Below, in pieces: positions 6,042 to 45,971 of a DNA stretch of 48,854 bases. The position numbers and the translations under genes are program-made. Origin of the DNA: Atractiella rhizophila (taxonomy: Eukaryota); assembly GCA_021432655.1 (NCBI GenBank), contig MU271218.1, positions 39,277 to 88,130 on the forward strand, given 5' to 3'. Every line of letters starts with the position of its first letter. Within the stretch, counting starts at the first letter, position 1. The notes under the pieces are model-generated. The model ran no database searches. It was not told the DNA's origin and saw only the letters and a program-made list of their open reading frames with translations.

Positions 6042-7871
6042 TCACTCCTCCCCACCCTCCCGAACCCATATCCATTTTCTCCCTTCACTCACCCCAAACT
6101 CTCTCAATGTGCTCCTTGCCTTGCATATCTCATCCTCAAGCCACCCTCCAAAGAATAGAAGAACCCTCAACTCGCGTCCTCTTGTCGTCTTCACCTCTTC
6201 AGCCCCATCCTCCGTATCCCCCTCCCCCTTCACCCCCCTGTCCCCAAAGAACCAGCAGATGAAATCTGAGAATACGAACGGAGTGAATTCCCAGTCCACC
6301 ACACAATACCGAACCTCTATATAGCCTATCGCTTTTGCATTTGTGAGGGTGTGGAAGAACTGAGGGGAAACGAGGTTGGAAGTTTGTTCACCGCCGTCGA
6401 GGTAGAGGCTAGTGAGATGTTTGAGGTGTGAAAAGTCGAGTGGACTGGGTAGCATGGAGGTCTTTCCATCAGGCGAGTAGGGGGCGAGGGTGATCTCGAG
6501 ATGTTCAAGGAGACTCGGCAGACAGGAGCCTGAGACGGAGGGAGGGAGGGGACACAGATTGGAGAGAAGCAGCTGTGTGAGGGTGAGTGTCAGGGAGAGG
6601 GATGGGAGAGGTGGGTATGTGTCAAGCGTTAGGCTCTTGAGGTCAGATGATAATCGAAGGGTTGGTGATGTTGACGAGGAGTCCTCCACCTCGCAAGTAC
6701 TGAAGGTTCTGATCCTGTCACCCATCCTCTGTGTGAAATTCTCGACCTCGTCCTTCTTCCACTTTCTCGAACCTTGCCCATTAAAGGTTACCTCATCCAA
6801 CTTCCTCAAGCCTTCAATCGCATGCAACACAATCTTCGCCTCCTCTTCATTCCAAATTGCGTCCAAGTGCACATATGTGACATTCGGCGAGCCGGCGATG
6901 ACGTCTTTCGCCATCTCAACACTGATGTCATCGTCCTCACCCCTAAACAAGAGATATGTCCACAAATGCCCGGCATTAGGATAAGCCTTCAAGCGAGCAT
7001 GCATCTCCTTCACAGAAACATTTTCACGCAAATAAGGGACTGAAACAGCCTTCCAAAGCTGACAGACAGCAGAAAGTCGCTCGAAGGAAACGAGATATCC
7101 AGTACCCAGCCTTTCATATTTATCGAATGAAAGAAACTCGAAGATGAGTGAGAGGATCTCAGGAGGAAGGTGTGTGATACTGCATAAACTAATACCTGTA
7201 GGCCGAGTTGTGGAGAGGGAGAGTTGGATGGTTGCCCCCCCCAGACCGGTGGATGGGATGGTCGATTCCTCCCATTCGCTGAGAGGAATGAAACGCTCTT
7301 GCCCCTCGGAGTATGAGTATAGGGCGACGGGGTCAAAGATGGTCTCAGAGCGATTATCTGCAATAGGAACCGTGGATGTGAAGGGCTTCAGAAGCAGGTC
7401 CCTTGGATCCACGGATGTATGATGTTTGGAATCCTCAAAAGCTACCGTAATACTTTCCTCCCCCAAAGTCATGGAAAGGTTCAATGCGTCGTCGCAATCG
7501 GCTGCATTTTCGAGACCGTCCAGACAGAAGTAGGACGATTTTGACGGCCCAAATTCGAACCTCCACAATCGAAGGGGTAAGACAAACGTGATGTGGAGCG
7601 TTTGAATTGATGAAGGTAGGCAAGCAAAGAAAGAGGGAAGAATAGAGAGGTGTAGCGGACTGCCATGTCGTAATTCTTTTGCGGTGATGAGATGGGCCAG
7701 TGCGATTGACTCTGTCCCCTGATCATCCTTGCATAAAATCGATGTTTTTCTCTTTTTCGCTCTGGGAGATAACACGTTGGACTAAAGCCCACGAACGTAC
7801 ATTAACGAGTTAACGAGACAAGAGGGGGACAGATCAGATCATGCCTCAGCACATTGTCCAACTTGAGCCAT
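6042..7871 (-). CDS. F-box-like / leucine-rich-repeat protein, array copy 1 (exon 1 7845-7871, extendable to in-frame ATGs at 7901/7910; GC-AG intron 7782-7844; exon 2 6042-7781)
   Basis: 577-codon open frame. F-box-like motif HLPPEILSLIFEFL...LSAVCQLWKAV at about 7038-7172, followed by LxxLxL strands (LKSLTLD, LTQLLLS, LEHLEIT, LTSLYLD). The ORF-track start is GTG; splicing GAG|GCATGA...TTTAG|TCC joins an upstream ATG exon in frame. Confidence 0.85.
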
Positions 7872-8199
7872 CTCCACATTCTCAGCACAATGACCAGGCA
7901 TCACCATCATGAGGATTTAGATTGCAACACCGTTCGTTCGTGAGAGTCAATGGATTGGGCCACCGTTTGCAGTTAGGACCGATTAGGATGGGGATGGTGT
8001 TGGGTGGAAGTCGGTGTGTGGACGTTGAAGGCTTTAGTTCTCGAGCACCGTTTTACCAGATAGTGATAGGAAATCTTTAAATATGTAAAATAACTGAAAT
8101 CCTTTTGCAATACTAGCACCTAAATTACACTGCAATTCAAACGAGAGCCAGAGCAGAACACTTTGCTATTGATGCTTCGTCCCATGATGATCTGACTGT

Positions 8200-15542: not shown

Positions 15543-17400
15543 TCAATCTGACTCCTCCCCACCTTCTCCAACCCATGTCAATCTGTAGAATTCGTCCTCC
15601 TCGTCTACAGACTCACTCAACGTGCTCCTAGCCTTGCATATCTCTTCCTCAAGCCAGCCTCCAAAGAATAGCTGAACGTTCAACACGCGTCCTCTCGTTG
15701 TCTTCACCTTTTCAGCACCATTCACCGTATCCGCCTCCTCCTTCACCCCCCTGTCCCCAAAGAACCAGCAGATGAAATCTGAGAATACGAACGGAGTGAA
15801 TTCCCAGTCCACCACACAGTACCAAACATTTACCCAACTTATCGCTTTTGCATTTGTGAGGGTGTGGAAGAACTGGGGGGAAACGAGGTTGGAAGTTTCC
15901 TCACCGCCGTCGAGGGTGAGGGAGGTAAGTTGGTTGAGGTGTGATAGGTCGAGCGGAGTGGGCAGGATGGAGATCTTTCCACCAGGCCAGTAGGGGGCGA
16001 GTGTGATATTGAGATATTCGAGGAGAGGCGGCAGACAGGAGCCTGAGACGGAGGGAGGGAGGGGACACAGATTGGACAGCTCCAGCCATGTGAGGGTGAG
16101 TGGGAGGGAGAGCGATGGGAGAGGTGGGTATGCATGAAGCACTAGTCTTTTGAGGTCAGAAGACAATTGAAGGCCTGGTGATGTCGACAAGGCAGAGTCC
16201 TTGACGTCGTATGCACTGAAGGTTCTGATCCTGTCACCCATCCTCCGCATAAAATTCTCGACCTCATCCTTCTTCCACTTTCTCGAACCTCGCCTCTCAA
16301 AGACTACCCAATCCAACTTCCTCAAGCTTTCAATCACATGCAACACAATCTTCGCCTCCTCTTCATTCCAAATTGCATCCATTGCCAAATACGTAACGTT
16401 CAGCGAGCCAGCGATGACGTCTTTCGCCATCTCAACGCTGACGTCATGGTCCTCACGCCGAAGCGAGAGATTTGTCCACAAACGCCCGGCATTAGGATAA
16501 GCTGTCAAACGAGCATGCATCTCCTTCACAGAACCATTTTCACGATGCAGATAAGGGACTGAAACGGCCTTCCAAAGCTGACAGACGGCAGAAAGTCGCT
16601 TGAAGGAAACGAGATAAGATCCAGTACCTTCTATGAGGCTTTCAGATTTATCGAATGAAAGAAACTCGAAGATGAGTGAGAGGATCTCAGGAGGAAGGTG
16701 TGTGATATTGCATAAACTAATACCTGCAGGTCGAGTTGTGGAGAGGGAGAGTTGGATGGTTGTCCCCAGACCGGTGGATGGGATGGTTGATTCCTCCCAT
16801 TCACTGAGAGGAATGAAACGGAATGTCTCCTCGGAGAATAGGGCAACGGGCTCAAAGAGGACCTGAGAGCGATTATCTGGAAGATGAAAAGTGCATGTGA
16901 AGGGCTTCCAAGACAGGCCCTCCATATCCACGGATGCAAGATATTTTGTATCCCCAAAAGCTACCGTAATACTTTCCTCCTCCAATGCAATGCAAAGAAT
17001 CATTGCACCGTCGGGTTCGACTTCATTTTCGAGACCTGCCAGAGAGAAGTAGGATGGTTTCGAGTGGAAATAAGAATCGGTCCAGAGTTTAAGAGGCAGG
17101 TCAAATGTGATCCGGAGCATGTGAATTGATGGAGGTAGGCGAGAAAGGAAGGAGGGGAGAATGGAGAGGTGGATCGGAGTGCTATGTCGTACCTTTACTG
17201 GGGTGATGAGATGGACCCGTGCGATTGACTCTGTTCCCTGATCATCCTCCTGTGAAATCATTCTGTGAGATAACATGCTGGACTAAAGACCACGAATTCA
17301 GGTTAAACGGACAAAGAGAAGGGAAAAGAGCGTCTCATGCCTGCAGCGCATCCGCGAGTTGTCCAACCATCTCGACGTTCTCCGCGCAATGATCAGACAT
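15543..17400 (-). CDS. F-box-like / LRR protein, array copy 2 (exon 1 17341-17400, or from ATG 17370; GC-AG intron 17283-17340; exon 2 15543-17282)
   Basis: 577-codon ORF collinear with copy 1, with the same F-box-like motif and LRR strands. CAG|GCATGA...TTTAG|TCC splice is in frame. Confidence 0.85.
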
Positions 17401-17690
17401 CACGATCGTGAGGATGGAGATGGCAAAACTGTTCGTGGGAGCCGGTGGATTAGGCGACCGTTGCAATTAAAACAGATTAGGATGGTGTTGGGTGGAAGAA
17501 GTCCGCGTCCGGACGTTGAAGGCTTTAGTTCTCTAGCACATGACTACTAGATAGTGCCACAGGAAATCCTAAAATATGTAAAAGAACTGAAATCCTTTAC
17601 AATACTAGGACCTAAATTACACTGCAATTCAAACGAGAGCTAGGGCAGTACGCTCTGATAATGATGCTTCGTTCCCTAATGATCCGAATG
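17401..17690 (-). promoter_or_regulatory. Conserved upstream non-coding block, putative promoter/5' UTR of the F-box genes (also about 7915-8190, 24896-25190, 32640-32910, 46020-46290)
   Basis: GGACGTTGAAGGCTTTAGTTCTC, AAATATGTAAAA and CCTAA(A)TTACACTGCAxxTCAAACGAGAGC are retained upstream of all five copies, more faithfully than the adjacent spacer DNA. Confidence 0.5.
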
Positions 17691-20399
17691 CGAGATGAGG
17701 CTACATAAGCCTGGGAGAACTATGGTGGGTAGTCGGCAATCTGGCTGGCGGAGGTGGTAGAGGAGCTCGCTTGCATCTCAGCGAAAACATCGGTGATGTT
17801 CGAGTCAGGAGGGAAGGCAGAGGTGTAGGGGCCTAAGAGATGGGCCAACGCAGACTGTTTGTTGTGGTCCTTGACTAAACAGTCCCCCTTGCGCTCCTCT
17901 TTCTCGATGAGCCGTTACATCGTCGACCTCGATGTCACGAAGCAAGCGTCGGTCGAAGGCGACCAACGGAGTGTGAGACAGGATGAGGTCGAGGAGAGAA
18001 TAGGACGGCGTCATGGAACAGAGCACAGGTATAGGATGGCGAGATGGCGAGAGAGTCCGAACAGAGGTGTGAAGAAAGTGTGACGCGGCCATCTGACATC
18101 CCCTTGACACATCTGCCCTCCCTGCTATTCGACATTCAACCTCAAGTCCATGTTCGACGTCTGACTTCCGACCGCTCATGGCTTGGTGCAGGCGTGAGGG
18201 GGGGGGAGTGCAAGAGGACGTGGAGTGAGACTATCAGAAAAGGGGGCAGTGAAGGATCTAGTCTACATGTCAGTTAGGACCCTTGTGGGAAGGAAAGAGA
18301 GGGAGAAAGGGAATATCCTGCCAGCAGAAAGAAAAGTCGTAACCAGGCTAGCGTGCGAAAAAGGCAGAGGGGTTGGCGGAGTGCGAAATGAAAGGCGAGC
18401 TTTGGCGCAGAGGGTATGAGTAGCAAAAAGAGGAGGCAGAGGTCAAAAAGGAGTAGAAGAGACACCGGGACGGCCCTTCTCACGCCTTTTTGCGATCACC
18501 GACCGAATTCGTCCGCTCTGTCCACCATTTTCACCATCTGAAGTGACTCTCATGCTTTGTTTTGCGAGAGAAACTTGAACGGATTGGTGGAGGGGGAATA
18601 GCAATAGTAGACGGCAAGACAATAGGCGAGGCGCCGAAAGACGGCCGCACGAGTGGGATGCGCGAATGGGTTGGCAGGGACTTCTTTCTGACCTCCTTTC
18701 TGACTCCATCTGAGCCACAGTCCACCTCCTTCGCCATCACGGTGCCTCTACAACGCCTCGCGGTTGACTTGCGATGTCTACCGTGGAGCAAGTTGCTCAG
18801 AGTCGAGGGATGGCTGAAGCGGGGATGGGGATGGTAGAGAGCGAGGCGAAGCGACAGGGCAACCGTGGGTGAGAGAAAGCATATCATGCCTCTCCGATGT
18901 CCAGGCTCAATCCCCGACCCTCTGTCTCACTCCGTCCTCTGCTTTGGCGATCCGACGCCCAACTCGGCCTGGCGTTCGTTTCGGAGGACAGAAAGGTTGG
19001 TGGAGGAGCGGGAGGATGATGGATGTCGGCGGGGGTGTAGGGAGAGGGCGGGGGTGTAGGGAGAGAGCGATGATGGAGCGAGAGAGGCGAGAGGCTTGGC
19101 AAGGGTTACGGGAAAGCGGGATAGGTCGGAACGGGGTATTGAGACTGGTGCAGGATGGCGCTTGCTGGGCGCCCGCGTCACCTTTTGCGTCCCGCACATC
19201 CCTCGCACTGCTCTCTTGCTTCGTAGCCTCAGCAGCGAAGGTAAGTAGGGACACTGGGAGCGTCGAGCAGTGCTGAAGCGTGAAAGGGCTGCAGGAGGCA
19301 GAGTGGTGATGGGTGTACAGGGTGAGTTGGCGAGGAACCTAATTCCTATGTCAGTAAGCGCGATTGCAAAATAGGGAGAAGGGAAGGGAAGGTCACCTTA
19401 TCCGGTAACTCTTTGTGCCATAGACTTTTTAGCCCTGTGTTGATCCATCCCTGGCCCCTGTTTCGCTTTTTTCGCTCCTTCCTGCCCTGCACTGCCCATC
19501 GAATTACCTGCTGCTCACACTCTCTTTCGCTGGTTAGCAGCCCAGGCACTTCCTTCTCGGTCAGTGCCGTCCGTCATGCTGTCGTGTCGTGCTTTGCTCT
19601 CCCTTTCCATCTGTGTCAACTTCACCTTCCATTACGACCCATTCTGTTCACAATGCATCTTGAGATCTTCCCTTCCTTCCTCTCGCTGATTGTCCTTGTC
19701 CATTCATCACTTGCTCACACCAGTGCAACCGACTACGTCATCCTTCGCGTGTGGGAAGGGCACATGAGTAAAAGCGGGCGGTGGAAGGTAGCTACGGCTA
19801 AAGAGAATGTGGAGGGTAGCGGAGCTGAAGGATGCCGGAGTAGGCTGAAACAGGATAGGGACACCAAACCATCCAGAGCGAAAGAGACTGTGGACGGATT
19901 GGACGACGCGAAAGAGGTGAGGCGGAGTGAGGCGGAGTGGATTGGGACTGCATGACAGCTCAGAGCGGAAAGGAGGGAAGAACGGCGGAGGGACGGAAGA
20001 CGAGGCACAGAGGCGTGAGATGTTCGTAGTTTCGGAGGGGGACTAACTGAAACTCATCCACTTTCGCTTTCACCGGTCACATTCGCGACGCGGCGCGTTC
20101 CGAATATTGAATGGGCAAGATCTCACCACAGCCGTCTGTCATCTTTTTCTTCCTGTGCCCAACTTGCAACTAATCAAATGATGGATGCAGGATCCACGCA
20201 AAGTCGTCGGTGATTCCGACGTCCCCGAATGGGAAGATCGCGGATTTCAGCGTCAAAGACGCTATGGTCTAGGATCACCACACTGCTCACGTAGTCGTTG
20301 CTGGTACGTCTCCACCTCTCCCCGCTGCCCGCCTCTCATCCTCTTGCTAAGAGAAAATGAACATAGTTTGGCCCAAAGTTAGCTACCTCAAGAAGGTAG

Positions 20400-22120: not shown

Positions 22121-22129
22121 CGAAGCTTC

Positions 22130-23070: not shown

Positions 23071-24895
23071 TCACTCCTCCCCACCCTCCTCAACCCATAT
23101 CCATTTAATCCCCTCACTCACCCCGAACTCTCTCAACGTGCTCCTTGCCTTGCATATCTCTTCCTCAAGCCACCCTCCAAAGAATAGCTGAACCCTCAAC
23201 TCGCGTCCTCTTGTCATCTTCACCTTTTCCACTCCATCAGCCATATCCCCCTCGTCCTTCACCCCCCTGTCCCCAAAGAACCAGCAGATGAAATCTGAGA
23301 ATACGAACCTTGTGAATTCCCAGTCCACCACACAGTACCATACATCTATGTACTTTATCGCTTTTACATTTGTGAGGGTGTGGAAGAACTGGGGGGAAAC
23401 GAGGTTTGAAGTTTCCTCACCGCCATCGAGGTAGAGGTTAGTGAGATGTTTGAGGTGTGAAAAGTCGAGTGGACTGGGTAGGATGGAGGTCTTTCCATCA
23501 GGCGAGTAGGGGGCGAGGGTGATCTTGAGCCAATGTAGAAGAGGCGGTAGACAGGAGGCTGAGACGGAGGGGGGGAGCGGACACAGTTTGCAGAGACCCA
23601 AGTATGTGAGGGTGAGTGGCAGGGAGAGCGATGGGAGAGGCAGGTATGTGTGAAGCTCTAAGCTTTCGAGGTCAGATGATAATTGAAGGCCTGGTGATAT
23701 CAACGAGGCAGAGTCCTCCACGTAGAAAGAACGGAAGTTTCTGATCCTGTCACCCATCCTCTGCATAAAATTCTCGACCTCGTCCTTCTTCCACTTTCTC
23801 CAACCTTCCTCTCCAAACATTATGTCATGCAACCTCGTCAAGCCTTCCAACGCATGCAACACAATCCTCGCCTCCTCTTCATTCCAAATTGCATCCATCC
23901 TCACCTTCGTAACATTTGGCGCACCGGCGATGATGTCTTTCACCATCTCAACGCTGATGTCATCTCTCTCAAATGAGAGGGATGTCCGCAAACGCCCGGC
24001 ATTAGGATAAGCTGTCAAACGAGCATGCATCTCCTTCACAGAAACATATGCACTCAAATATGGGACTAAAACAGCCTTCCAAAGCTGACAGACGGCAGAA
24101 AGTCGCTCGAAGGAAGCGTGATATTCAGATTCATCGAATGAAAGAAACTCGAAGATGAGTGAGAGGATCTCGGTAGGAAGGTGTGTGATACTGCATAAAC
24201 GAATACCTGTAGGTCGAGTTGTGGAGAGGGAGAGTTGGATGGTTGTCCCCAGACCGGTGGATGGGATGGCTGATCCTCCCCATCCACTGAGAGGAATGAA
24301 ACGTTGTTGCTTCTTGGAGTATAGGGCAACGGGTTCAAAGAGCGTCGCAGAGCGATTATCTGGAACACGAAGCGTGCAAGTGAACGGCTTCACGTCCAGG
24401 TTGTCCGAATTCAGGGATGCAAGATTTTTGGTATCCCCAAAAGTCACCGCAATACTTTCCTCCTCCAACGCGACGCAAAGAATCACTGTACTGTCGGGTT
24501 CATTTTTGAGACTTGCCAGGGAGAAGTAGGAATATTTCGACGGCCCATACCTGAGCTTCCAGAATCGAATAGGTAAGACAAACGTGATCCGGAGCATGTG
24601 AATTGATGGAGGTAGGCGAGAAAGGAAAGAGGGAAGGATGGAGAGGTGGATCGGAGTGCGATGTCTTAAGTCTACTGGGGTGATGAGATGGACCAGTGCA
24701 ATTGACTCTGTTCCCTGATCATCCTCAGGGGAAATCAATGTTTCATTCTCAATCCTTCGCAGAGAAGATACGCTGGACTGAAGGCCACGAATTCATGTCA
24801 AACGAGACAAGAGAAGGGGAAAGATCAAATCATGCCTGCAGCGCATCCGCGCGTTGTCCGACCATCTCGACGTTCTCCGCGCAATGATCAGACAT
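23071..24895 (-). CDS. F-box-like / LRR protein, array copy 3 (exon 1 24836-24895, or from ATG 24865; GC-AG intron 24778-24835; exon 2 23071-24777)
   Basis: 555-codon ORF whose track start is TTG. The frame stays open up to the acceptor TTCAG|TCC. Paralogous to the other copies throughout. Confidence 0.85.
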
Positions 24896-30756: not shown

Positions 30757-32589
30757 TCACTCCTCCCCACCCTCCCGAACCCATGAATTTCTGTCCTCCT
30801 CGTTCACACCAAAATCTCTCAAGGCGCTCCTGGCCATGCATATCTCTCCCTCAGGCCACGCCCCAAAGAATAGCTGAACCGTCAACCAGTGCCCTCTAAT
30901 TGTCTTCATCTTTTCAGCTCCATCCACCGTATCCGCCTCCTCCTTCACCCCCCTGTCCCCAAAGAACCAGCAGATGAACTCTGAGAATACGAACCCTCTG
31001 AATTCCCAGTCCACCACACAGTACCCAACATCTATGTACTTTATCGCTTTTGCATTTCTGAGGGAGTGGAAGAACTGGGGGGAAACGAGGTTGGAAGATT
31101 CGTCACCACCATCGAGGTAGAGTCTGGTGAGATGTTCGAGGTGTGAAAAGTCGAGTGGACTGGGTAGGATGGAGGTCTTTCCATCAGGCGAGTAGGGGGC
31201 GAGCGTGATGTTGAGATACGATAGAAGAGGTGGTAGACAGGAGCCTGAGACAGAGGGAGGGAGGGGACACAGGTTGGAGAGATCCAAATACGTGAGGGAG
31301 AGTGGGAGGGAGAGCGATTGGAGAGGCGGGTATGCATGAAGCTCTAGTATTTTGAGGTCCGATGATAATTGAAGGCCTGGTGACGTCGACGAGGCTGAGT
31401 CCTCCACATCTTCAGCATCGAAGAATCTGATCCTGTCACCCATCCTCCACATGATATTCTCGACCTCGTCCTTCTTCCACTTTCTCGAACTTAGCCCATA
31501 CAATCTTATGTGTTCCAACTTCGTTAAGCCTTCAATCGCATGCAACACAATCTTCGCCTCCTCTTCATTCCACAATGCATCCATCGCCAAATACGTAACG
31601 TTCGGCGAGCCAGCGATGACGTCTTTCGCCATCTCAACGCTGATGTCATCCTCAACCTCTCTCTGAAACCTGAGGGATGTCCTCAAACGCCCGGCATTAG
31701 GATAAGCTGTCAAAAGAGTATGCATCTCCTTCACAGGAACATATTCACCGAAATATGGGGCTAAAACAGCCTTCCAGAGCTGACAGACGGCAGAAAGTCG
31801 CTCGAAGTCAACAAGATGTCCAGTACCTTCTATGAGCCTTTCATCTTCATCGAATGAAAGAAACTCGATGATGAGTGAGAGGATCTCAGTAGGAAGGTGT
31901 GTGATACTGCATAAACTAATACCTGTAGGTCGAGTTGTGGAGAGGGAGAGTTGGATGGTTGTCCCCAGACCGGTGGATGGGATGTTTGATTCCTCCCATT
32001 CGCTTAGAGGAATGAAACACTGTTCCCCCTCGGAGTCTGAGTATAGGGCGACGGGGTCGAAGATAGCCTCAGAGCGATTATGTGGAAGGTGAAACGTGCA
32101 TGTGAAGGGCTGCACGTCCAGGTCATCCACATCCACGGATGCAAGATATTTGGCATCCCCAAAAGTCACCGCAATACTTTCCTCCTCCAACGCGATGCAT
32201 AGACTGCCTGTACCGTCGGGTTCGACTTCATTTTCGAGACCTGCCAGAGAGAAGTAGGATGATTTCGACGGCCCATAATACTCGCTCCAGAAGCCCATAG
32301 GCAAGACAAATGTGATCCGGAGCATGTGAATTGATGGAGGTAGGCGAGAAAGGAAAGAGGAGAGAATGGAGAGGTGGATCGGAGTGCCATGTTCTACCGT
32401 TACTGCGGTGATGAGATGCGCCAGTGCGATTGACTCTGTTCTCTGACCATCCTTGCATAAAATCGATGTTTCCTTTTTTTCACTCTGGGAGATAACATGC
32501 TGGACCACGAACGCACATTAAACGAGATAAGAGGGGGAGAGATCAGATCATGCCTGCAGCGCATCAGTACATTGTCCAACTTGAACCAT
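30757..32589 (-). CDS. F-box-like / LRR protein, array copy 4 (exon 1 32554-32589; GC-AG intron 32500-32553; exon 2 30757-32499)
   Basis: 583-codon ORF whose track start is GTG. The acceptor used in the other copies is deleted; the next AG (GGTCCAG|CAT) is in frame with the main ORF. Confidence 0.8.
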
Positions 32590-35500
32590 CTCGACGCTCT
32601 CCGCGCAATGATCAGGCAGATCAGATATCACTACTCGTGAAGATGGAGATCCCAGAACTGTTCGTGGAGTCGATGGATTAGGCGATCGTTGCAATTAGGA
32701 CGGATTACGATGGTGTTGGTGGAAGGAAGTGGGTGTCCGGACGTTGAAGGCTTTAGTTCTCTACCACTTGACTACAAGATAGTGCTGCAGGAAGTCTTAA
32801 AATATGTAAAAGAATCCTTTGCAATACTAGTACCTAAATTACACTGCAAATCAAACGAGAGCTAGTGCAGAACGCTCTGATATTGATGCTTCGTTTCGTA
32901 ATGATTGATTGTGAGAGGAAAGGCTAGATGTGGCTGTCACAGTTAGGGAGGCAGTTACCTATCTGGATGACAGAAGAGGCAGAGGAAACTACTTCTGAGA
33001 ACGTAGATGACACTTGAGTCACTAGCGGAGACGAGAGGGATGGAGGACGGAGGCTCAGGAGCACGAGAGGGACCAACCTAGATGTCCACTTGACGTCCCT
33101 GATGCAACACTGCACACTTTGCCCTCCTCTTTCTCCATCAGCCATTTCATTGTTGCCGTCAATGTCATGAAGCAAGCGTCGGTCGAAGGTGATCCATAGA
33201 GTGAGAGCCGGAGTGCGACGGGAGGTGGGAGGATAAGCTGGGAGAGAGGGTAGGAGGGCGGGATGGAACACGGGAGAGGTATAGGACGGCGAGTGCGAAT
33301 AGAGGTGCGAAAGAAAGTGCAAGGCGTCCCTCTGGCATCCTATGTTGATTATAGGCCCTTCGACACATCTCGCTTCCCATTTCGCTATCCGACTTCCCAC
33401 CTTCAGTCCACATTCACCTTCCGAGACTGACGAGCCTGGTGGAGGCTTGCGCGAAGTTGGAGTGAGGCAGGGGATGGATGAGATTAGCAGAAAAAGGAGC
33501 GGCGCAGCCAGGGATTACTGTGTGCACATATCAGTTAGGACACTTGTAACAAGAGAGAGAGAGGAGAAGGGGAATACATTGCGAGCGGGAAGGAAAGGTC
33601 TAACGAGGCCGGAGTGCGAAAAGAGGCGGAGGGTTGGTGGAAAGCCAAATGAAGGGTGAACGTTGGCGGAGAGGGTTGAGAGGTGGGGCAAGAGAGTATG
33701 TGAGGCGAAAGGAGATGGCGGAATGTGGGAGAGACGCCGGGACGAACCTTCTCACGTTTTTCTGCCATCACCAACCGCGTTCCCTCTATTCCCCTCTGTC
33801 TACCCTTTCGCCAGTTGATGTGTCGCCCGTGTCCTGGGTTGACTCCAAATGACCAGTATGCGAGAGAAGATAGAGGTCTCAGAGGGGGGGTACCTTGCCT
33901 AGGCAATGGTGGAGAACAAGTCGGGATGGTGAAAGATGGGGCGTGAATTGGGGATTGGCGGCGTCGCAATCTTCCATCACGACCTCTACGTTTCGCGGTT
34001 GACTTCTGGATGTCTAGTGCAAAGCAAGTTGGTTCGAGGCGAAGGATGGCGGAAGCGGGCTTGAGGGAAGGTGTGGGAGAGCGAGATGAAACGGAGGGCA
34101 TCAGTGAGTGAGAGAAAGCGTACCATGCCTCTTCAATGTTCATTCTCAATCCCCAACCCAAACTGCCACCTCCTTCGTCTGCCTTCACACTCGCCGTCCA
34201 TTTGGGAGGGCACAACGGTTGCTGGAGGAGTAGAGGACGATGAATGAAGAGAGGGGAGCGGAGGTGAGAAGAGGAGGATGCTGGAGCAAGAGAAGCAGGG
34301 CGAGAGTTACGAAAGCCAGATGAGTTGGGGAAGTATTGAGACTAGTGCAAGACTGCGCTTACACGGTACTCCCGCGGCTCCTTTTGCCTCCCATGCTTCT
34401 CTCATACTGCTCTCTTAGATCGAAGCCCCAGCAGCGGAGGTAAGGGAGGACGCGGGACGGGGCTGCCGGAGGGAGAGAGGTGATGAGTGTCCTTGGTGAC
34501 GAGCATCCTTGGTGTGGGGGCGAGGAACCTGATCCCTATGTCATTAAGCACAAATGCAAAAAGAGGGAGAGGGGGAAGGAAGGTCACCTCTTTTCTCGCA
34601 CCTCTCTTCGTTATAAAATTTTAGCCCTCCATTGACCATAGTGGGATCCACACCTGGCTTCTCTTTCGCCTTTCCTCACTCGCTCTCGCCCTCCACTGCA
34701 CATTGCGTGCCTCTTTCGTTGTGCTATGCCGTCCTCAGGCTCACTTTCACTGGGCAGCAGATAGCGGTGCTGGCACCTTCCTTTTCAGGCAGTGTTGTCC
34801 ATTCATTGCTCGCTCACACCCACGCTGCCGACTGCATCAACATTTGCATGTGGGAAGGGTACATGAGCAAAAGAGACGGTGGAGGATAGCTGAGGTGAAA
34901 AGGAATGTGGAGGAGAGCGAGCTGGAGGGCTGACGAAGGGGCTGGAACAGGAGAGGGACACTAGAACTGGTCAGAGTGAAGGAGACTGAGGACGGATGAA
35001 TGCCGCGAGAGAGGTGGGCTTGGGACTGCGAGAAAAGCAGCGAACTGGAAGCGTGAATGGCCGTAAGACGGTGGAGATACGATAGACGGCGAACGAAGGA
35101 TAGAAGGCGTGAAGCACAGTGGGTGGACGGGAGACTGTAGCGGAGGTCGAAGGAGATGACACAAAAAGGGAAGGGAGCTGCTCGCAGAGTCATCCACCTC
35201 CTGGCGATCGTAGAAAATCATTCAACAACATCCCAGTTTCATGCAACGATCTTCCCAACCAAGGCTGTCCCATTTATGCCTCCAAGCCGTGTTCCCCATT
35301 CCCCGGTGGCGGTTGACATTCTTAATTAGACTAGACTGAAGGATGGACTTGACAGGAATGAGACTGAGAGGAGGCTGATCAACCGCGTTAACTTGTGTGT
35401 TCTTCAGTTCTTGAAGCAGATTGCCACGCGGAGCGTTGGTTATACTTTGATATGTCGAGAATACTTCTGGGAGCCTCTTAAAGTAGAATTCCTGCTGGCG

Positions 35501-37892
35501 ATTTTTATGCACAGACTTGCAGAGCTGATTGATGCTCTCCAGCTGCAAAAAAAGCTTCCCATCCATCTATCCCATCGAGGGGGAGGAACTCCAGTAGCTC
35601 CCAGTCATCGTGGCAGCGCATCGCTCTCTACACTTCCTGCATAGCCGATACTATTATATCTTTGAGCAATCCATATCTTCTTTTCACAAACATGGGACGT
35701 TCGCTGAAGGAGATTCTGGAGCAGTTATCTCTAACTACCCATTGTTACAATGTTAGGGGTGGTGAAGATTTTCATGATCACGTTGATGGGTTAGGCATCA
35801 AATCATCATTCCCAGTTATCAATGGCCTATGTAGATGCTTCTCTCCTGATGACGGGTAAAAGCACCATTGAAAGATATTAGTTTGTCAGCGGCTGTTAAG
35901 GCTGCTCTTCTCCTGTCCACACCGGACACCTTCCTCACCCATATGGTGCGTTCATGGATATCAAGATGAGTGATTGCCTCTCAACAAATCTCGCTTTCAC
36001 AATAGTCAAACAAGGGGAAGGAGGATAGGTACGTTGGTATTGTGCATACGAAGTTGAAGCAGGAGGGCGTGGCGTGAATATGTGCCACATGTTAAAGCTG
36101 CAGGAAGTGGGAGCGGAGAAGGTGGGCGAGGGAGTATCATTCTTGATACTGTCAATGACAAGGAGCGAGAGTGTCCTTACGTGGACGGACATCTTGAGTG
36201 CGTTTATCTTTGTCTCTGGAGAACACTGATGGAGACAAAGATGCATGATATTTGAGCCTCGAGAAATCCATAAGGATGAGGAAGTAACACCGGGACGGTC
36301 CTGAAGAGTTCCCCATCACTCCCGCAGAGTTGGCGCATCGTGAGCGAGCCCACTGTGAGCATTCGAATATCAGATCAAGGTGAGTAACTTCCTTTCTGTC
36401 CCAGCTTCTGCTAGAAGACGACAGGCGGTGCGATCTCGCCTATCCCCAGAACCAGCAAAGAAGCACACTTCTGCTCCTTCGACACTTGCAACAACACAAC
36501 ATCTTTTATCGCCATTTCTCCTCCGCCCGCAAGCCCTTCTGTCGTTCCTCCTGCAGCAACCCCAGTGAGCTTCTACATCACTAGCGCCATCTCCTGTGCA
36601 AGCATCTGCGCCAACTGGCCCAGATCCAGTGATGACATCTGGTCCCGCTAGTTCTACGTCTTCATTGCCTCATGGCGACCTGCACAGAAGAGAACGAATC
36701 CTGTAATGAAAAACCACCAACGCCTACACTTACTCCTCGTCCACAGCTACTTTCTATCGCTCCATCGCCCTTACCGGAGCCCAAATCAACAAGTACAGCT
36801 GCAGACACACTCCCCTCGATTTCTCGAATTGATCAGTCGAACGGTGGTGTGTTGAAGAGTAGGTTCTCTGTTTTTTCTCCGAGATAAAGAATGAAGGTGG
36901 GTTTGGTTTCTGAAGTCAAGAAGGAGGACGAACCGGTGCAAAAGAGTAAGGAGTAAGCGAAGGAGGCAACTGGGAGGAAGGATGGGATTGTGAAGGAGAT
37001 GCGGCTAATTCACACCGGAAATCTCGACAGCATCTCTTCTCCACTGTCCTCGACTGGCACTCGCCGAGATATCTTTTCTGTCGGACACTTGCATCTACCA
37101 ACCAAATCTCATGCCGAACGGTACCATGTTGAGAATGAGATGATTGCTACGGTGTGGAGGAAGCCAAGGTGAATCGGATATTTTCGTTCCTCTCAAGCAT
37201 GCGTCCACCTCTAGCCTCTCTCGTCCACTTTTTTTCTTACGTTTCTGTTCATTTCTATGCATGTAATGTATTTATGTTCAGTGGAGGAGGGAGAGGAGAG
37301 GATTGCATGTTCTAGGAGGGTCGTAGGGATCTTGATGGGAGCTTGAATTTCCAGGTTACAGGCCATACACAGTGGGTGTGCAGGAGACTGCACGCGGAGG
37401 GCGGAGGAGATGACACAAAAGGGAGCTGCTCGCACAGTCCACATCCCATCCTTGCGATCGTAGAAAATCATTCAACTACTGGAGGCAACTATCTACCCAA
37501 ACCCAAGACTGTCGCGATTTACACCTCGCCGCCGTGTTTCCCATTCCCGTGTGGCCTTTGACACATTCTTCGCTAGACTAGACTGAGGGATAGAGTTGAC
37601 AGGAATGAGACTGAGAGGAGGCTAATCAACGGTGCCAATGTGTTTTTCTTCAGTTCTTGAAGCAAATTGTCAGGGGAAAATTTGGTTATACTGCGACAAG
37701 TGTGCAGTGCCCTCGTCCCTCGAGCATCCCCCCCCGCCAGGGGCTTCTCCCCTTGGCCCCAGCCTCTGGCGGCCACTGCGTGAGGCCTCGCCTTCGGCGA
37801 GCACAGACTCACCATATGTACTCTACTGTCTTCAAAAAACAATGAAAGCTGAGTGGTCTCCTCATACCTCGGAGAACCACTTCAGCTTTTGA

Positions 37893-40464
37893 CTATACTG
37901 TTAGGAACATTTGTAACACTTCCTTGTAAACTACATTATCTGTTTGCTTGGTTTCTTCTCCTTGCTTTGTTTTGACCAATACTCGTAAATTGTTTGCGTT
38001 TGAAACCCGTGAAAGACCAACATAAAGCTGCCCATGAGAGAAAGGAGAAGACTCTAAGTACAAACCCACATGTCCAACAGATTGTCCTTGCACTTTATTC
38101 AGAGTTAAGGCAAACGCTAAGCGCACAGGGAATTGAAAGCGCCAGAATTGAAAAGGAAGCTGGTTTGATACTGCACTGTCAATGCCAATTCGAGGAATGA
38201 GAACTGATTCGCCACTGTGTGCACCTGCAATGATGGTTGCTTTGATGACTCGTCGGAGAAGCTGAGTGACAATGAGCCACGTGCCGTTGCACAGGCCAGC
38301 AGATGGATTGAGATTTTGCAGAAGAATGATGGGTGTACCGGTCTTGAGGTGTAAATGATGCGAAGGGAATCCAGAGATCTCCAGGGTATTCAGGTACTCG
38401 ACAGAGAAGCGATTTCTGAGATCTCCCTCGTCATCTATAATTTGATCTGCACTATAATATACCCGATCTCCTATGGATTCGAGCCACTGAATCAAGTGAT
38501 CGTTGATACCATCCGCATGATGTGGGCATGTGGTAGACCTCTCTTCTGACATTCAATGCCCCAGACATATCCGATAACCCTTCCAAAGATCTGTCGTACC
38601 ACTAAATCCTTGATGTACTCCAGAGCCTTTAGTCGAAAAACCCTGGAAACCAAATCTGGTCGATCCTCTGGTTTTTGTCCTGGTAGGAGGCCTTCCGTGA
38701 TCTCTGCCCAGTGTGGGTTGCAAGTGAAGGTTGTAAAGATATTGGGGGTCCTTTGGCACCACCAATACTCATTGCATCCTGGAACGGCTGATTCATTGAA
38801 CATGGACCGCTAATGAAACTTGATGGTAATATAGTCCGCCTCCCAATATCTTCTAAAGAATAGCCTTCTGCAAGGGCATCCATAAGACCTTGATACACCT
38901 TGGCTCGAAGAATGGACTGATTGAACTGCAGATAGCAGAGTCGATTCGCCTCAATTTGAGCATAAGCATCGACTACCAATTCTTGCAGTAGCCGACCACC
39001 GTAGAGAGGGAGTGAGAATATATCATTTCGTTGATGCAACATGTAAGAATAGAACTCCATTTGGCTGACACATTGTCAAACCCCAGAATTACCAACTTGC
39101 ATGCCGTCATTATTGAAGTGCTCTTGCTGGCGAGGAGGAAGATCTGCAGGCAGGTCTCGATATGGAATCTGCGGATGCCATCCTTGGTCCCCATATAGAA
39201 ACAGAAGAGGAAAACAAAGTGGAAGATAATTTGAGTTGAGCTCATTGACACGCTGTAAGTTGCTACCAGTCGTGGTTGCCCTGAGCTGGATGATAATATC
39301 TCTGGCCACTCCATATTCTTCTCTGTTACTGTCTCCTACCATCACTACAGCAACTTCACTGGCTACAGGAATATTGTAGTGCCTTGGGTCCCTATCTCAT
39401 GGAGCGACTGTGTAAAGATGTAGTGTTGTAGTGGGATCCTATTCTATTCTTTCTTTTGCAAATTTGTAGATCCTGGGATATGGGTGACACGGAAGAGCAT
39501 AGCCTGAAGGTCTTCAAGTGTCCTATGATTCAGTGATATTGAAGTGTTGCCAACTCTTCGTTCAGTCTGTACAGCTGAATCTGTAATGTAGACCTGTGCA
39601 AATGTTTCACACCCTTCTTGTTGTGGGAAAAGAGTGCCAATAAGGTGGCACAGCTCTCCCTGAATTTTAAAGGAGTAGGGACCATGTCCAGGAATTGATA
39701 CCTGGCGGACGTCTTAGGACGTAAAGGCAAAAGCATTATTGAATACCCTGATATGCTCTCGAACTGCCTTTGACTCTATAATGATTGTTCCTCTCAGATA
39801 TGTATACGCAATAAGTTGAATAGAAATACTTACCTGTTGTATTGTGATGTGTAAAGAGCTTTCGTAGCTCTTAAGGCGGAGGCGGAGGAACAGGTAGCAG
39901 CACCTTGCTGTGGAGACAGCACAATGCACACTTTGGATTTTGTTGTGGGCTGTTAACGATATTCTCTTCCATCCAATGAAAGGCTTTGCAATGTGTACAA
40001 AGTAATCCTCAAGTAGAGAGGTGGTGTGCCTCAAGATCCATATCAGGTGAGTAGTTGAATGCAGGATAGTGATGTTGCCTTATTTCGCCTCGCAACAACG
40101 GGATTAATGCCCTATCCTCATCACTGTCCACATCATCAAGATCAGGAGAGGATGGGTATGATCGGGCTTCTTCTTCACTGTACTCCTCAGGGGAAGGTGA
40201 ACGCTGTCTCCAATGTCGTCGAGCTGGTCGTGATGATATAGATAGTAAAGAGCTTCGACAGCGCCGCTGACACTGACGTGGAGCCCTAGTTGATCTTGTC
40301 TCATGTTGAGATGGAGTTGGTGGAGTAGGATTAAAACATGCAGGGCGTCGCCTCTCTCTTACAGGTCGACCTTGGTGTAGTGGTGCCTCCTGCTGCAGAG
40401 ATTGATGCCGTTTGGATCGGAGCTCTCGATTTCTTGTTTGATTTCTCTGAATTGCACGTGGCAT
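37893..40464 (-). pseudogene. Helitron Rep/helicase (RepHel) remnant: Zn-finger region, Helitron_like_N/HUH Rep, C-terminal PIF1-type helicase
   Basis: Motifs across several frames: CxxCKAFHW...CCxxxKVxLP, IRVFNNAFAFTS, PLLFLYGDQGWH, GGRLLQELVVDAYAQIE, ILPSSF, TFTCNPHW, DRPDLVSRVF, QKRGLPHAHI, NLNPSAGLCNGT, QFPVRLAFALTLNKVQGQS, FSHGQLYVGLSRV, NVVYKEVL. Contains stops and frameshifts. GTAAGT...ATAG intron at 39776-39833. Start position approximate. Confidence 0.92.
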
Positions 40465-40861: not shown

Positions 40862-40917
40862 AATTCTGTACCTGGCTGGCTTATTTGAGTAGGTAAGGAA
40901 ATTTTTGTCAAAGTGAC

Positions 40918-41186: not shown

Positions 41187-44142
41187 GGGGGTGATATAAG
41201 AGCTCAAAAGTACATGCGTGAGTCATGGTCAAACCCGTCGTGCTTTTTATATAAGGATATGTCGAGAATGCTGCTGAGAACCTGAAAGAAAGATTGTTGC
41301 CGGAGATTTTATGCACGTACTCGCAGAGCTGATTGATGCTCTCCTGCTGTAAACAAAGCTTCCTATCCATCTCTCCCATCGTGTGAGAGAGGGACTTCTG
41401 TAGCTCTTCATTATGGCATCGCTCTCTGGACCTCGTGCACACGCGACACTGTGATGCCTTCGAGCCGTCCTTGCTTTTTTGCATGCACCGAATGTTGGCT
41501 GCAGGAGATTCCAAGCAAATAAGGAACCACCCCACCGTTAAGACGCTGGAGCAGTGAAGATTTTCTGCAAGTTCTTGGTCACGTTGATGGGCAAGCATCA
41601 AATCGTCATTCACAGTGAGCAATGGCCTATGCCAGTCACTCCTTTCATCCAGATGCCAGGCAAAAGCGCCAGTGAAAGATATCAGTCCAGCAGATGCTCC
41701 TTTGACTGCTCTTCTCATTTCTACACTCGACACGTTCCTCACCCATATCGTGCGTTCACTGATATCATGATGAGTGATTACCGCCTCTCAAAAGATCTCG
41801 CTTTCACGACAGTTAAACGAGGGGTAGATGATTGGTATGTCGGAATTATGCATATGAAGCTGAAGCCGGAGGACCTGGTGTGAATATGCGCCAACATTTT
41901 GGAGCTGCAGGACGTGGGAGGGAAGAAGGTAGGCGAGAGAGTATCATTCTTGATCTTGTCTGTGACGGGGAGCGAGAGTCTGCTCGCGTGAATGGATATC
42001 TTGAGTGCGTTTCTTTTCTGTTTGTCCCTAGTGAACACTGATGGAGGCAAAGCTACATGAGATTTGGGCCTTGAGAACATCCATAAGTGCGAGGGAGGAT
42101 CACCGGGAACATCAGGAGGAGTTCTCCATCCATGCCACGGCGTTGGTACATCAATGGGCTAGCCCACCGAGACCATTCATATATCAGATCAAGGTGAGAA
42201 CTTCCATTCTGTCCCAGCCTCTACTAAAAGGCGACAGGTGGTATGATCTCACCTCTCCCCAGAACCGGTAAGAAGCATACTTCCGCTCCCGCTCCTTCAA
42301 TACTTGCAACAACAGCAACATCCTCAGTCACCGTTTCTCCTCCTCTTCCAATCCTTTCTGTAGTTCCTCCAGCTCCAACACCAGTGAGCGTCGACTCTCC
42401 CTAGCCGATGCTCCTATGTCACCAACACTATTTCCTGTGCCTGCATCTGTGCCAGCTAGCCCAGATCTCACTGCTCCAATGATCTCAACTGGTCCATCTG
42501 GTTCTCCTTCTTCAATGCCTCAGTATCACCCGCACAGGAGAGAACGAATACAGCAGTGAAGAAACGCCTACCTTATTCCTCATCCGCAGACGCTTTCTAT
42601 CCCTCCATCGCCCTTATCAGAGCCCAAATCAACAGGTACAGCCACAGACATCTTCCCCTCGATTTCTTAATTGCTCAGTCCAACGGTGGGGTGTTGAGAG
42701 TAGGTTCTCTGTTCTTTCGCCCAGATAAGGAATGTGTTGTCTCACGTTTATATTTCTTTTTGGCAGGGTGTGTTTGCGTTTGTGATTTAGCGAAGGAGGA
42801 GCGCAGAGGATAGCATAGTCAAGGAGGTTCGTGGAGATCATGAAGAAAAAATTCAAGTTGCAGATTCGAAGTTATGGACGCTCGATGCAGAGTGTAACAG
42901 GGAACAGTCGTGCATTCAGATTGTCTACCTCATCAAGGATGCTGGAGCCTACGTCTAAGTCGGAATGAGCAACTAGTTCGTCCAGCTGCCCATCACGCCA
43001 TCCTCACGCAGGAGGTGAACCTCAAAGGTTCCTTCCGGTCCATCCTCCCTCCTACCGCTTGCACTATAATGTTATTCTGACGCTTCTTAGATTTACTCAA
43101 TGATACGGACGGGCAAGCAATTGATTTGTTCGCTAGGCGCCTTGTAGACTGCTGAGTCGCTCATCACGCATCGCTTCAAGTTCAGAGATGCATTTCGCGC
43201 CTTTAAGACAATACAGGCTCGCCTGCCCTCTCCTCTTCGCCTTGATGTCACAAAGTTGAAACCTGGCCGTGATGCTTCGCTCTAGGACGGGAAGGGATGG
43301 TGAGGACGCGATAAAGACCATCACCGAAGGATACAACGGCAATTGAGCCTTACAGATACGTGAATGCAACTCTTGGGACTATTACGGAAATGAGGGAGCA
43401 AAAAGATGGATTTATAATACCACAAAGGGTTCAAGGAATGTTACCATTGTTATACCACATCTTCGATCTTCGATGGCACCGCTTTCTGTTCTGTTAAGTA
43501 GTCCTTCGTTGAATGCATGAGTCGTCGCCAACCGTAAGAACGACTCGAGTGACACTCAAAGGGTGATCGGCTTCACTACATTGTAGCACATTTGGACGGA
43601 ACTTGATGCCTTAGGCGCTTTTGCTGGGAATCAGCAGAATCATTTGCATGGCTGAAGACATCCGTAATACACAGAGAGAGCATCCTCCTCGCCCGATCTC
43701 GTCATGCCCTGAAGCTTCCGAAATAATCATCAACAGCAATTCCTTCCCATCGTCATCATTGCCAGTATCCCCTGTTTCCTGATCCCCCGAGAACCAGCAG
43801 ATAAGCCCAAGGAAACTGACTCACTCCACCCAATGCGAAATAGCTATGGCCCCTACCGCATTGTGTTCTAATAGTATGCATGGAAAGACTTAGTGCGGAT
43901 GGGGTTCCAAGATTGCTCATAACCATCAAACACGAGGTATCGAGTGTGCGGGAGGTGACCGTTGACGAGCGGTACGTTGAATAGCGGGGGTACAGATAGT
44001 GCGATGGCATTGTCCCAAACAGATTCCAGCCCTGTTTCCAGTCACGAATTTTCAATGCTGTGTTAGATGGAAAGGATACGAACTGTGCACTTTCTTATCA
44101 TGTCTTCTCTAGAACATGAGTCAAATATGAGGATGTCCAGCA

Positions 44143-45971
44143 TCACTCCTCCCCACCCTCCCAAACCCTTCTGTATGCATCCTGCTCGCTCACCCCACAC
44201 TCAATCAACATGCTCCTGGCCATGCATATCTCTTCCTCATGCCACGCTCCAAAGAACAGCACGATCCCCAACCAGAGTCCTCTCCTCATCTTCATCTTTT
44301 CCTCTGTATCCAACTCCTCCTTCAACCCCCTGTCCCCAAAGAACCAGCAGATGAAGTCTGAGAATACAAACCCTGTGAATCCCCAGTCCACCACACAATA
44401 CTGAACATCTATGTGTCTTATCGCTTTTGCATTTCTGAGGGAGTAGAAGAACTGGGGGGAAACGAGGTTTGAAGTTTCCTCACCACCGTCGAGCTGGAGT
44501 CTGGTGAGATGTTCGAGGAGTGATAGGTCGAGCGGAGTAGGTAGGATGGAGATCTTTCCACCAGGCCAGTAGGGGGCGAGTGTGATCTTGAGCAATTCTA
44601 GAAGAGGCGGCAGACAGGAGCCTGAGACGGAGGGAGGGAGGGGACACAGATTGGAGAGATCCAACTTCGTGAGGGTGAATGGGAGAGAGAGCGATGGGAG
44701 AGGCGGGTATATGTGAAGCTCTAGTGATTTGAGGCCAGATGATAATTGAAGGCCTGGTGATGTCGACGAGGCAGAGTCCTCCACGTCAAAAGCACTGAAG
44801 GTTCTGATCCTGTCACCCATCCTCTGCGTGAAATTCTCGACCTCATCTTTCTTCCACTTTCTCGAACCTTCTCCTCTAAAGTGTACCTCATCCAACCTCC
44901 TCAAGCCTCCAATCGCATGCAACACAATCTTCGCCTCCTCTTCATTCCAAAATGCATCCATCGCAAAATACGAAACGTTCGGCGAGCCAGCGATGACGTC
45001 TTTCGCCATCTCAACGCTGATGTCATCGTCAAGCCCACTCACAAATTCGAGGTATGTCCACAAATGTCCAGCATTAGGATAAGCTGTCAAACGAGCATGC
45101 GTCTCCTTCACAGAAACAGGTTCATTCAGATAAGGGACTGAAACAGCCTTCCAAAGCTGACAGACGGCAGAAAGTCGCTGGAAGGAAATGAGGAGGTATT
45201 CACCATCTTCGATGAGCTCTTGATTTTCATCAAGTGAAAGGAACTCAAAAATGAGTGACAGGATCTCAGGAGGAAGGTGCATGATACTGCATGGACTAAT
45301 ACCTGTAGGTCAAGTTGTGGAGAGGGAGAGTTGGATGGTTGTCCCCAGACCGGTGGATGGGATGGTTGATTCCTCCCATTCGCTGAGAGGAATGAAACGC
45401 CGTTGCTCCTTGGAGTATAGGGCAATGGGTTCAAAGAGGACCTGAGAGCGATTATCTGGAAGATGAAAAGTGCATGTGAAGGGCTTCCCAGACAGGGGCT
45501 CCAATTCCACGGATGCATGATGTTTGGTATCCCCAAAAGTTACCGTAATACTTCCCGACTCCAACGCGATGCAAAGAATCACTGTACCGTCGGGTTCGAC
45601 TTCATTTTCGAGGTCTTCCAGAGAGAAGTAGGATAATTTCAATGGCCCATAACGCTCCCTCCAGAAGTCAAGAGGCAAGACAAATGTGATCCGGAGCATG
45701 TGAATTGATGGAGGTAGGCGAGAAATGAAAGAGGGAAGAATGGAGAGGTGGATTGGAGTGCCATGGAGTAATGTTACTGGGGTGATGAGATGGATCAGTG
45801 CGATGGACTCTGTCCCCTGATCATCCTTGCATGAAATCGATGTTTTTCTTCTTTTCATTCTTGGAGATAACACGCTTGACTAGAGCCCGCAAACGCACAT
45901 TAAACGAGACAACAAGGGGAGAGATCGGATCATGCCTGCAGCGCATCAGTGCATTGTCCAACTTGAACCAT
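44143..45971 (-). pseudogene. F-box-like / LRR gene, array copy 5, with premature stop at 45310-45312 (exon 1 45936-45971; intron 45880-45935)
   Basis: ORFs 45310-45873 and 44143-45282 are in the same frame and are separated by TGA where the other copies encode Arg (TTRP). The gene is otherwise intact and collinear. Confidence 0.75.

Follow-up and report, generated by a model that had tools for sequence, protein, structure and literature searches.

An array of F-box/leucine-rich-repeat genes that diverge at a predicted binding face in the fungus Atractiella rhizophila

How do neighbouring copies of one gene come to share long unchanged blocks and still differ, often radically, at regularly spaced codons between them? 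The question is raised by a 48,854-nucleotide stretch of contig MU271218.1 (positions 39,277 to 88,130, forward strand; assembly GCA_021432655.1) of Atractiella rhizophila, which we take to be a plant-root endophyte and a member of Pucciniomycotina. This 48.9-kb window, within which all positions below are counted, carries five homologous open reading frames (ORFs), all on the minus strand and arranged head-to-tail. A first-pass annotation had read them as a tandem array of F-box/leucine-rich-repeat (LRR) genes with hypervariable exposed positions. Our analysis bears on what these genes encode, on where exactly the copies differ and on what may have driven the differences. The amino acids at positions 3, 5 and 7 of the LRR strands, together with some loops of the N-terminal domain, are replaced several-fold faster than silent sites, and the five tandem copies suggest a repertoire of changing target specificities.

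Each gene is predicted to encode a beta-rich domain of about 185 amino acids, an F-box-like motif and about ten LRRs; residues are numbered throughout after copy 2, the reference copy. The Pfam family PF12937 (F-box-like) matches all five copies (E 2.6e-5 to 9.5e-3, 16.1-24.3 bits) and 31 of 42 family members at E<=0.01, with a best E of 5.8e-9. In copy 2 the motif lies at 16548..16706 on the minus strand (residues 191-243, E 5.4e-5, 23.3 bits) and reads HLPPEILSLIFEFLS ... LSAVCQLWKAV, with an inserted low-confidence loop. Residues L194, P195, E197 and W235 are invariant across 42 paralogs, and a profile of the family, when compared with the PDB, matches the F-box of F-box DNA helicase 1 (E 0.0086). 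At the level of sequence the motif thus matches weakly in any one copy but convincingly when the whole family is considered. In an AlphaFold2 (AF2) model of the full-length protein, built from a 42-row alignment (mean predicted local distance difference test score, pLDDT, 69.6), the F-box region is modelled, at low confidence, with helices at residues 196-206 and 230-238 and a disordered insert at 208-227.

The LRR solenoid of copy 2 (15657..16499, minus strand; residues 260-540) was delimited from the DSSP strands of the AF2 model and from fold matches, the repeats being defined by the strands of the model and the invariant hydrophobic positions of the family. Ten LxxLxLxx strands start at residues 267, 294, 321, 350, 375, 395, 419, 450, 479 and 529, at spacings of 20-50 residues. 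The model places ten beta-strands alternating with helices or loops over residues 269-535, with pLDDT 82-94 at 251-360. When it was compared with 48,161 PDB representatives using VIA-align, FBXL17 ranked first (Z 13.8, with 294 residues aligned over model residues 188-577) and FBXL2 second (Z 13.2); both structures were solved with SKP1, and both alignments begin at model residue 188. Further matches include Rad7 (Z 11.6), the hagfish variable lymphocyte receptor 2o6q (Z 10.6), FBXL3 (Z 10.2) and NLRP3, and almost all rows of the top 50 are LRR proteins, with the caveat that repeat proteins may reach a middling Z from their arrangement alone. The two best fold matches have exactly the F-box-plus-LRR architecture; together with the Pfam matches they support the tandem F-box/LRR array of the first-pass annotation. 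No NB-ARC or NACHT domain was matched by Pfam in the five copies or the 42 family members.

The N-terminal beta-rich domain (16722..17249 in copy 2, minus strand; residues 10-185) is delimited from the AF2 model. Its pLDDT per 10-residue block in the full-length model is mostly 63-89 over residues 20-160, falling to 48 at 111-120; folded alone from a 15-row alignment, the domain reaches a pLDDT of 45. It has no Pfam match, and a feature search of the ESM Atlas returned 0.80, which is chance level, so that no fold was assigned.

The differences between the copies are concentrated on one predicted feature. Each copy contains the invariant blocks quoted in the first-pass annotation, with one deviation: copy 3 has WNEEEARIVLH, with Arg in place of Lys. 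The variable LxxLxLxx strings occur in each copy exactly as quoted. Among the five copies, the mean nonsynonymous p-distance reaches 0.525 at LRR position 3 and 0.552 at position 5; it is 0.329 at position 7, 0.228 at position 2 and 0.180 at position 8, whereas the core positions 1, 4 and 6 have 0.074 and the rest of residues 260-540 has 0.079. In the codon models described below, 45 of 556 codons have a posterior above 0.8 for the class with omega (dN/dS) above 1, and 21 have a posterior above 0.95. Of the 22 sites within residues 260-540 that have a posterior above 0.8, 17 fall in the ten predicted strands, compared with 39 of 253 others (Fisher p=2.4e-9). The selected sites alternate along the predicted strands, in the manner of side chains that share one strand face.

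This hypervariability at the strand x positions, the central claim of the first-pass annotation, holds beyond the window: the same columns are the most variable in 38 independent paralogs that did not enter the codon analysis. In 16 close paralogs, positions 3, 5 and 7 have entropies of 2.63, 2.16 and 1.26 bits and the core positions 0.32-0.41 bits, and the selected sites derived from the window average 2.10 bits as opposed to 0.73 (p=1.4e-19). Positions 3, 5 and 7 are enriched, in the 38 paralogs, in Tyr (4.6x), His (3.3x), Gln (3.0x), Asp (2.5x), Arg (2.4x) and Trp (2.0x). Such a residue composition is typical of protein-binding surfaces. Candidate sites are also found in loops of the N-terminal domain (residues 63-74, 118-123 and 152) and in the C-terminal tail; the N-terminal component goes beyond what the first-pass annotation had described.

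To what extent does this pattern imply selection? We used our own implementation of GY94-type site models with F3x4 codon frequencies on the five sequences and 556 gap-free codons. Gene-wide omega is 0.66-0.77 by NG86 and 0.92 under M0. The likelihood-ratio test (LRT) statistic is 131.4 for M1a/M2a, with 12.4% of sites at omega 6.3, 133.7 for M7/M8 and 130.7 for M8a/M8. Split by domain, the M1a/M2a statistic is largest for the LRRs (73.5) and the N-terminal domain (45.8) and falls to 9.7 in the F-box plus linker and to 3.5 in the C-terminal tail. Under four alternative topologies the LRT is 138-147, and 14 of 14 simulations under the M1a null gave values of 3.03 or less. At x sites chosen a priori, omega is 3.5 when the silent rate is fixed at the gene's value, and 5.1 at positions 3, 5 and 7. 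The neutral yardsticks at hand are the silent p-distance of the gene (0.16-0.19) and the mean p-distances of two flanks (0.21 and 0.33), and replacement at the LRR x positions is clearly faster than any of them. Positive, diversifying selection is therefore likely, although not proven, from five recombining sequences.

The rest of the protein tells the opposite story. The site models place 36-43% of codons at omega near 0, and the scaffold is therefore under purifying selection, which holds the hydrophobic core of the LRRs, the F-box, the helices between strands and the open frame itself; dN/dS is 0.53-0.56 in the F-box and 0.35 at the LRR core positions. The coding sequences of the copies differ by 15.8% of nucleotides on average, and the reading frame is open in four of the five. 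In a neutral simulation with half of that divergence on each lineage, only 26 of 5000 copies stayed open, and the mean number of stops was 4.8.

On these grounds we consider it probable that the window holds part of a large family, so far found in Atractiella alone, of FBXL-type receptors of SCF (Skp1-Cullin-F-box) ubiquitin ligases, whose variable LRR face is selected for specificity. If the proteins work as FBXL proteins do in the complexes that have been solved, their F-box would bind Skp1, and the LRR face that is concave and variable would hold a substrate for ubiquitination. Each paralog might then deliver a different protein, and selection for new or different specificities could keep the variation in place.

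The family is large, with some 60-100 paralogs, and judging from sequence searches it has so far been seen only in Atractiella. A word-indexed protein search retrieved 61 clusters at 90% identity, all of them named Atractiella rhizophila, to which the window proteins show top identities of 72-80%. None of the window proteins is present in the protein collection at >80% identity, a gap that may have arisen because this region was left unannotated, perhaps through repeat masking, or because the window comes from a close relative of the strain in the collection. When 1.84 billion representatives were searched with a family profile, 98 proteins matched at E<=1e-3; the ten of these that were looked up, distant ones included, are all from A. 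rhizophila, and the weakest matches cover the F-box segment alone. In a metagenome scan with three family motifs, none of 481 pattern matches encodes a relative. The annotated paralogs are spread over many contigs. Tandem arrays seem to be the rule, since several of these paralogs share contigs, six of them lying on a single 82-kb contig.

Within the window, every copy has the same gene structure, one short exon followed by one long exon. Copy 1 has its main exon at 6042..7781, a stop-to-stop open frame with the stop codon at 6042-6044, and its first exon at about 7842-7901; the main exon of copy 2 lies at 15543..17282 (577 amino acids from the ATG at 17276) and its first exon at about 17338-17400. 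The corresponding ORF and first exon are at 23071..24792 and about 24833-24895 in copy 3, at 30757..32517 and about 32551-32589 in copy 4, and at 44143..45879 and about 45933-45971 in copy 5, all on the minus strand. The first exons were located by tblastn with the N-termini of annotated paralogs; each codes for about 20 residues (M.DHCAENVEMV.Q..DALQ) and lies 50-110 nt upstream of the long frame. Position 45971, at which the interval of the first-pass annotation ended, is the ATG of the first exon of copy 5.

In copy 5 the long frame is interrupted by a single CGA>TGA change (in-frame TGA at 45310-45312) just upstream of the F-box, at a codon that is CGA or CGG (Arg) in the other four copies. 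An ATG at 45282 could start a protein devoid of the N-terminal domain. Judged from its sequence, copy 5 is probably a pseudogene or an N-terminally truncated form.

What has been multiplied is larger than the genes alone. Start-to-start distances between successive copies are 9513, 7516, 7686 and 13377 nt, so that the duplicated units measure 7.5-13 kb, flanking DNA included, and in a self-BLAST several kilobases of flank align between units at 65-82% identity. The family has grown by tandem duplication of these whole units. The spacer between copies 4 and 5 is enlarged and contains a degraded Helitron remnant (37893..39072, minus strand; Pfam E 6.4e-28, 7e-18 and 7.2e-22), which consists of Helitron_like_N (E 6.4e-28) split over two broken frames, plus a Pif1 2B domain (E 7.2e-22), and is separate from the gene family. 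A spacer segment of about 2 kb, single in the other units, flanks the Helitron on both sides (34797-37039 and 41256-42734). G+C-rich blocks (0.54-0.56), with a GC skew of 0.17-0.22 on the plus strand, lie upstream of every gene and are thus repeated in every unit, at about 8.2-10.4, 17.8-19.9, 25.3-27.2, 32.9-34.8 and 46.4-48.4 kb; long ORFs rich in Pro, Ser and Arg run through them in several frames and look non-coding. Only two tandem repeats were found in the window, both small; one, at 27099-27210, is a perfect two-copy repeat of a 56-nt unit within an intergenic block. Apart from the Helitron remnant, Pfam matched nothing in 59 further ORFs of the window, an all-against-all comparison of 549 window ORFs gave just short multi-frame similarities and no other conserved long ORF, and Rfam had no match over the 48.9 kb.

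Public sequencing runs add little on expression. Contigs matching the family are short and fragmented, and no joint across the first intron was seen in them. Two runs of one sample contain 0.40-0.47 of the words; they look like DNA, because the flanks are covered as well as the gene. A root metatranscriptome yielded a few pieces of 61-228 nt with a likeness of 95-99%, and some of these lie beyond the gene. Over 15582-17230, runs X1 and X2 show a summed contig depth about 10-30x that of the flanks, made up of very short contigs; this excess is expected, since near-identical family members share words, and is not a copy number.

The copies also appear to have exchanged sequence. The tree of the coding sequences resembles a star whose internal branches are weakly supported, and each of the ten splits that group two copies has 5-16 sites in its favour. 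For copies 2 and 4 (p=0.002) and for copies 2 and 5 (p=0.0025; both uncorrected, in ten tests) the longest run in common reaches significance. At residues about 427-444 of copy 2 there is a two-state cassette, APYWPGGKISILPTPLDL or APYSPDGKTSILPSPLDF, which sets copies 2 and 5 against copies 1, 3 and 4; cutting across the other site patterns, it looks like the product of short-tract gene conversion. Upstream of the genes, copies 2 and 3 (17400-18200 and 24900-25700) differ by 4-9%, as against 16-21% in their ORFs, a contrast that reflects either a recent homogenisation of the promoter region or a faster change of the coding sequence. From the splits, runs and flanks, short-tract exchange is therefore evident, at the sequence level, as part of the evolution of the family. 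Repeat-induced point mutation was also considered and set aside, the transition/transversion ratio being only 1.2-1.4 in the flanks and kappa 2.0-2.5 in the coding sequence.

Several results weigh against reading the array as a set of SCF receptors selected at their LRR face. On the structural side, the Pfam gathering cut-off for the F-box (24.3 bits) is reached by one copy of the five, copy 3, and the AF2 model is of low confidence there (pLDDT 36-62 per 10-residue block over residues 191-250). None of the LRR families in Pfam reaches E<=0.01, either in the five copies or in the 42 members, the closest being LRR_FBXL18 (E 0.27, copy 4). A Foldseek search against the PDB gave no match at E<=1e-3; its top matches are nearly all LRR proteins, but at E about 1e-2. 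On the side of selection, the codon analysis comprises five sequences and models of our own coding, and recombination could inflate site tests that depend on a tree. The excess of sites with dN/dS>1 that the first-pass annotation had led one to expect is large in the standard models; it weakens once the silent rate varies among classes. With a separate silent rate for each of three classes, omega 2.63 at 11% of sites is preferred over omega<=1 with an LRT of 12.9, a value reached by none of 35 simulations under the constrained model (maximum 8.19). The a-priori x sites fare similarly: the high omega obtained with a fixed silent rate falls, when that rate is free, to 1.33 at all x sites (s=2.6, p=0.2) and to 1.81 at positions 3, 5 and 7 (s=2.7, p=0.053). 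By NG86, dN/dS within the 50 a-priori x codons is 0.84, because the apparent silent distance is high there too (pS 0.41, compared with 0.16-0.19 elsewhere). Finally, the constrained three-class model, which includes a fast neutral class, is about equal to M2a in fit (lnL -5425.7 and -5426.6, respectively).

One could therefore envision that the exposed strand residues are simply unconstrained, with omega about 1, in a family undergoing neutral birth-and-death, or "genomic drift", in which the scaffold is conserved and many copies are redundant or being lost. The non-significant omega of 1.3-1.8 at x sites and the equal fit of the fast neutral class are in line with such a process, as are the nonsense codon of copy 5 and the high gene-wide omega; drift of this kind was earlier proposed for the plant F-box superfamily by the authors of PMC7829749, in the portion of that work available. 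It is a possible account of the array, but in our view a doubtful one: the model with dual rates still prefers an omega of 2.6 that the null simulations do not reproduce, nonsynonymous p-distances at positions 3 and 5 (0.53 and 0.55) exceed the silent and flank distances alike, Tyr, His, Arg and Trp are over-represented at the variable positions, and four frames of five have been kept open.

The exchange between copies invites a different explanation, namely that patchy gene conversion from diverged paralogs, or local hypermutation, created the variation with no selection on the protein. Such an origin would accommodate the ten conflicting splits, the significant runs shared by copy 2 with copies 4 and 5, the dimorphic cassette common to copies 2 and 5 and the mosaic flanks of copies 2 and 3. 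The raised silent rate of the variable codons (s 2.6-2.7) is also in keeping with it, pairs with the same amino acid using a different codon in 78 of 219 cases at variable codons and in 422 of 3718 elsewhere. However, the variable codons alternate with core codons whose silent rate is normal (s=0.92) and many of which are identical in the five copies, and a conversion tract or mutational patch cannot skip alternate codons; a local mutational cause is therefore unlikely. In addition, part of the silent excess consists of Ser differences of the AGC/TCC type and Arg differences of the CGT/AGA type, which are expected because of repeated amino-acid replacement. We judge this origin very improbable. 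The notion that the ORFs are non-functional repeated DNA or transposon cargo, relics of a mobile element such as the Helitron of the window, strikes us as barely credible. It could appeal to that degraded element at 37.9-39.1 kb, to the repetition of whole units with their non-coding DNA, to the lack of any other conserved long ORF or non-Helitron Pfam domain in the 48.9 kb and to the absence of the window proteins from the collection at >80% identity. Yet there is a single Helitron fragment, in a single spacer; the open frames far exceed the neutral expectation (26/5000), purifying selection is strong at some 36-43% of codons, and the annotated paralogs lie on many different contigs.

The reading of the array as a repertoire of SCF receptors diversifying at the LRR face has parallels in several known systems. 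Among F-box proteins solved with SKP1, FBXL17 (6w66), FBXL2 (6o60) and FBXL3 (4i6j) have the F-box followed directly by a curved LRR solenoid, as is predicted for residues 188-577 here; their sequence identity to the Atractiella proteins is 8-14%, and the latter possess the extra 185-amino-acid N-terminal domain. FBXL17, FBXL2 and FBXL3 are conserved genes, believed to be single-copy, and unlike the Atractiella family they do not form diversifying arrays.

In plants, the LRRs of nucleotide-binding LRR receptors (NLRs) and other R-gene products, like the variable lymphocyte receptors (VLRs) of jawless fish, vary at the x positions of xxLxLxx strands. The Atractiella genes resemble them in these hypervariable positions, in their tandem clusters and in the exchange of sequence. 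They differ from plant NLRs in that no NB-ARC or NACHT domain was found in the proteins and the output module would be a ubiquitin ligase, and from VLRs in showing no sign of somatic assembly.

The closest precedent for the mode of evolution comes from nematodes. According to the part of the literature available, the F-box families of Caenorhabditis elegans have expanded in tandem; comparisons of paralogs and of wild isolates show an F-box under purifying selection and a substrate domain that is positively selected, and an anti-pathogen hypothesis has been proposed for these expansions (PMC8120010, citing Thomas 2006). The likeness to these and to plant F-box families extends to the constrained F-box, the fast recognition domain and the hypothesis of a foreign or changing target (PMC8120010, in the sections available). 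The substrate domains of C. elegans, as described there, are of the FTH and FBA types, whereas those of Atractiella are LRR solenoids accompanied by an additional N-terminal domain, and the host is a basidiomycete fungus.

Basidiomycetes have themselves been the scene of F-box expansions. The available portions of two accounts describe, in Agaricomycetes, 67-1,199 copies that arose mostly by recent tandem duplication, evolve fast and were read as regulators of fruiting-body development (Krizsan et al., preprint 10.1101/349894; PMC10282164). Tandem duplication and fast evolution are shared with the genes studied here, but those portions report no site-specific diversification of an LRR face, and the named members of the present family come from Atractiella rhizophila alone. 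Fungal NLR-like receptors, for their part, carry hypervariable WD, ankyrin (ANK) or tetratricopeptide (TPR) repeats, and LRR motifs were not detected among them as far as the available text goes (Dyrka et al. 2014, PMC4986451). Those repertoires, proposed to serve non-self recognition, are likewise large, fast-evolving and selected on a repeat surface; by contrast, the Atractiella proteins combine LRRs with an F-box, have no nucleotide-binding oligomerization domain (NOD), and the repeats within one protein are not near-identical (compare PMC4986451, same portion). By term search, a 2023 review of the fungal immune system does not mention F-box or ubiquitin (PMC10197012), and a limited literature search found no paper on a fungal F-box/LRR family under diversifying selection. 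What is new here is an LRR-based, fast-diversifying F-box repertoire in a fungus, with an extra N-terminal domain; the nematode and plant kind was already known.

It is tempting to carry the receptor reading further and to see in the family a germline repertoire of about 60-100 intracellular LRR receptors wired to an SCF ligase, whose LRR faces and N-domain loops would recognise non-self or selfish proteins and consign them to the proteasome. The targets may in that case be mycoviruses, transposons, bacterial or plant effectors or toxins, or partners in allorecognition. We consider this extension rather unlikely as things stand, and put it forward as a conjecture. Should the variation prove neutral, the array would still illustrate cleanly how an orphan family is shaped by tandem duplication, by the exchange of short tracts and by constraint on the scaffold. 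As it is, an F-box family diversifying on its predicted LRR binding face would constitute a testable candidate for a fungal system of recognition followed by degradation, a logic that parallels the long-standing but unproven proposal for nematode F-box proteins. If the non-self reading is true, the family would represent a branch of innate immunity in fungi that relies on LRRs, is coupled to degradation and is separate from the known fungal NLRs, which lack LRRs.

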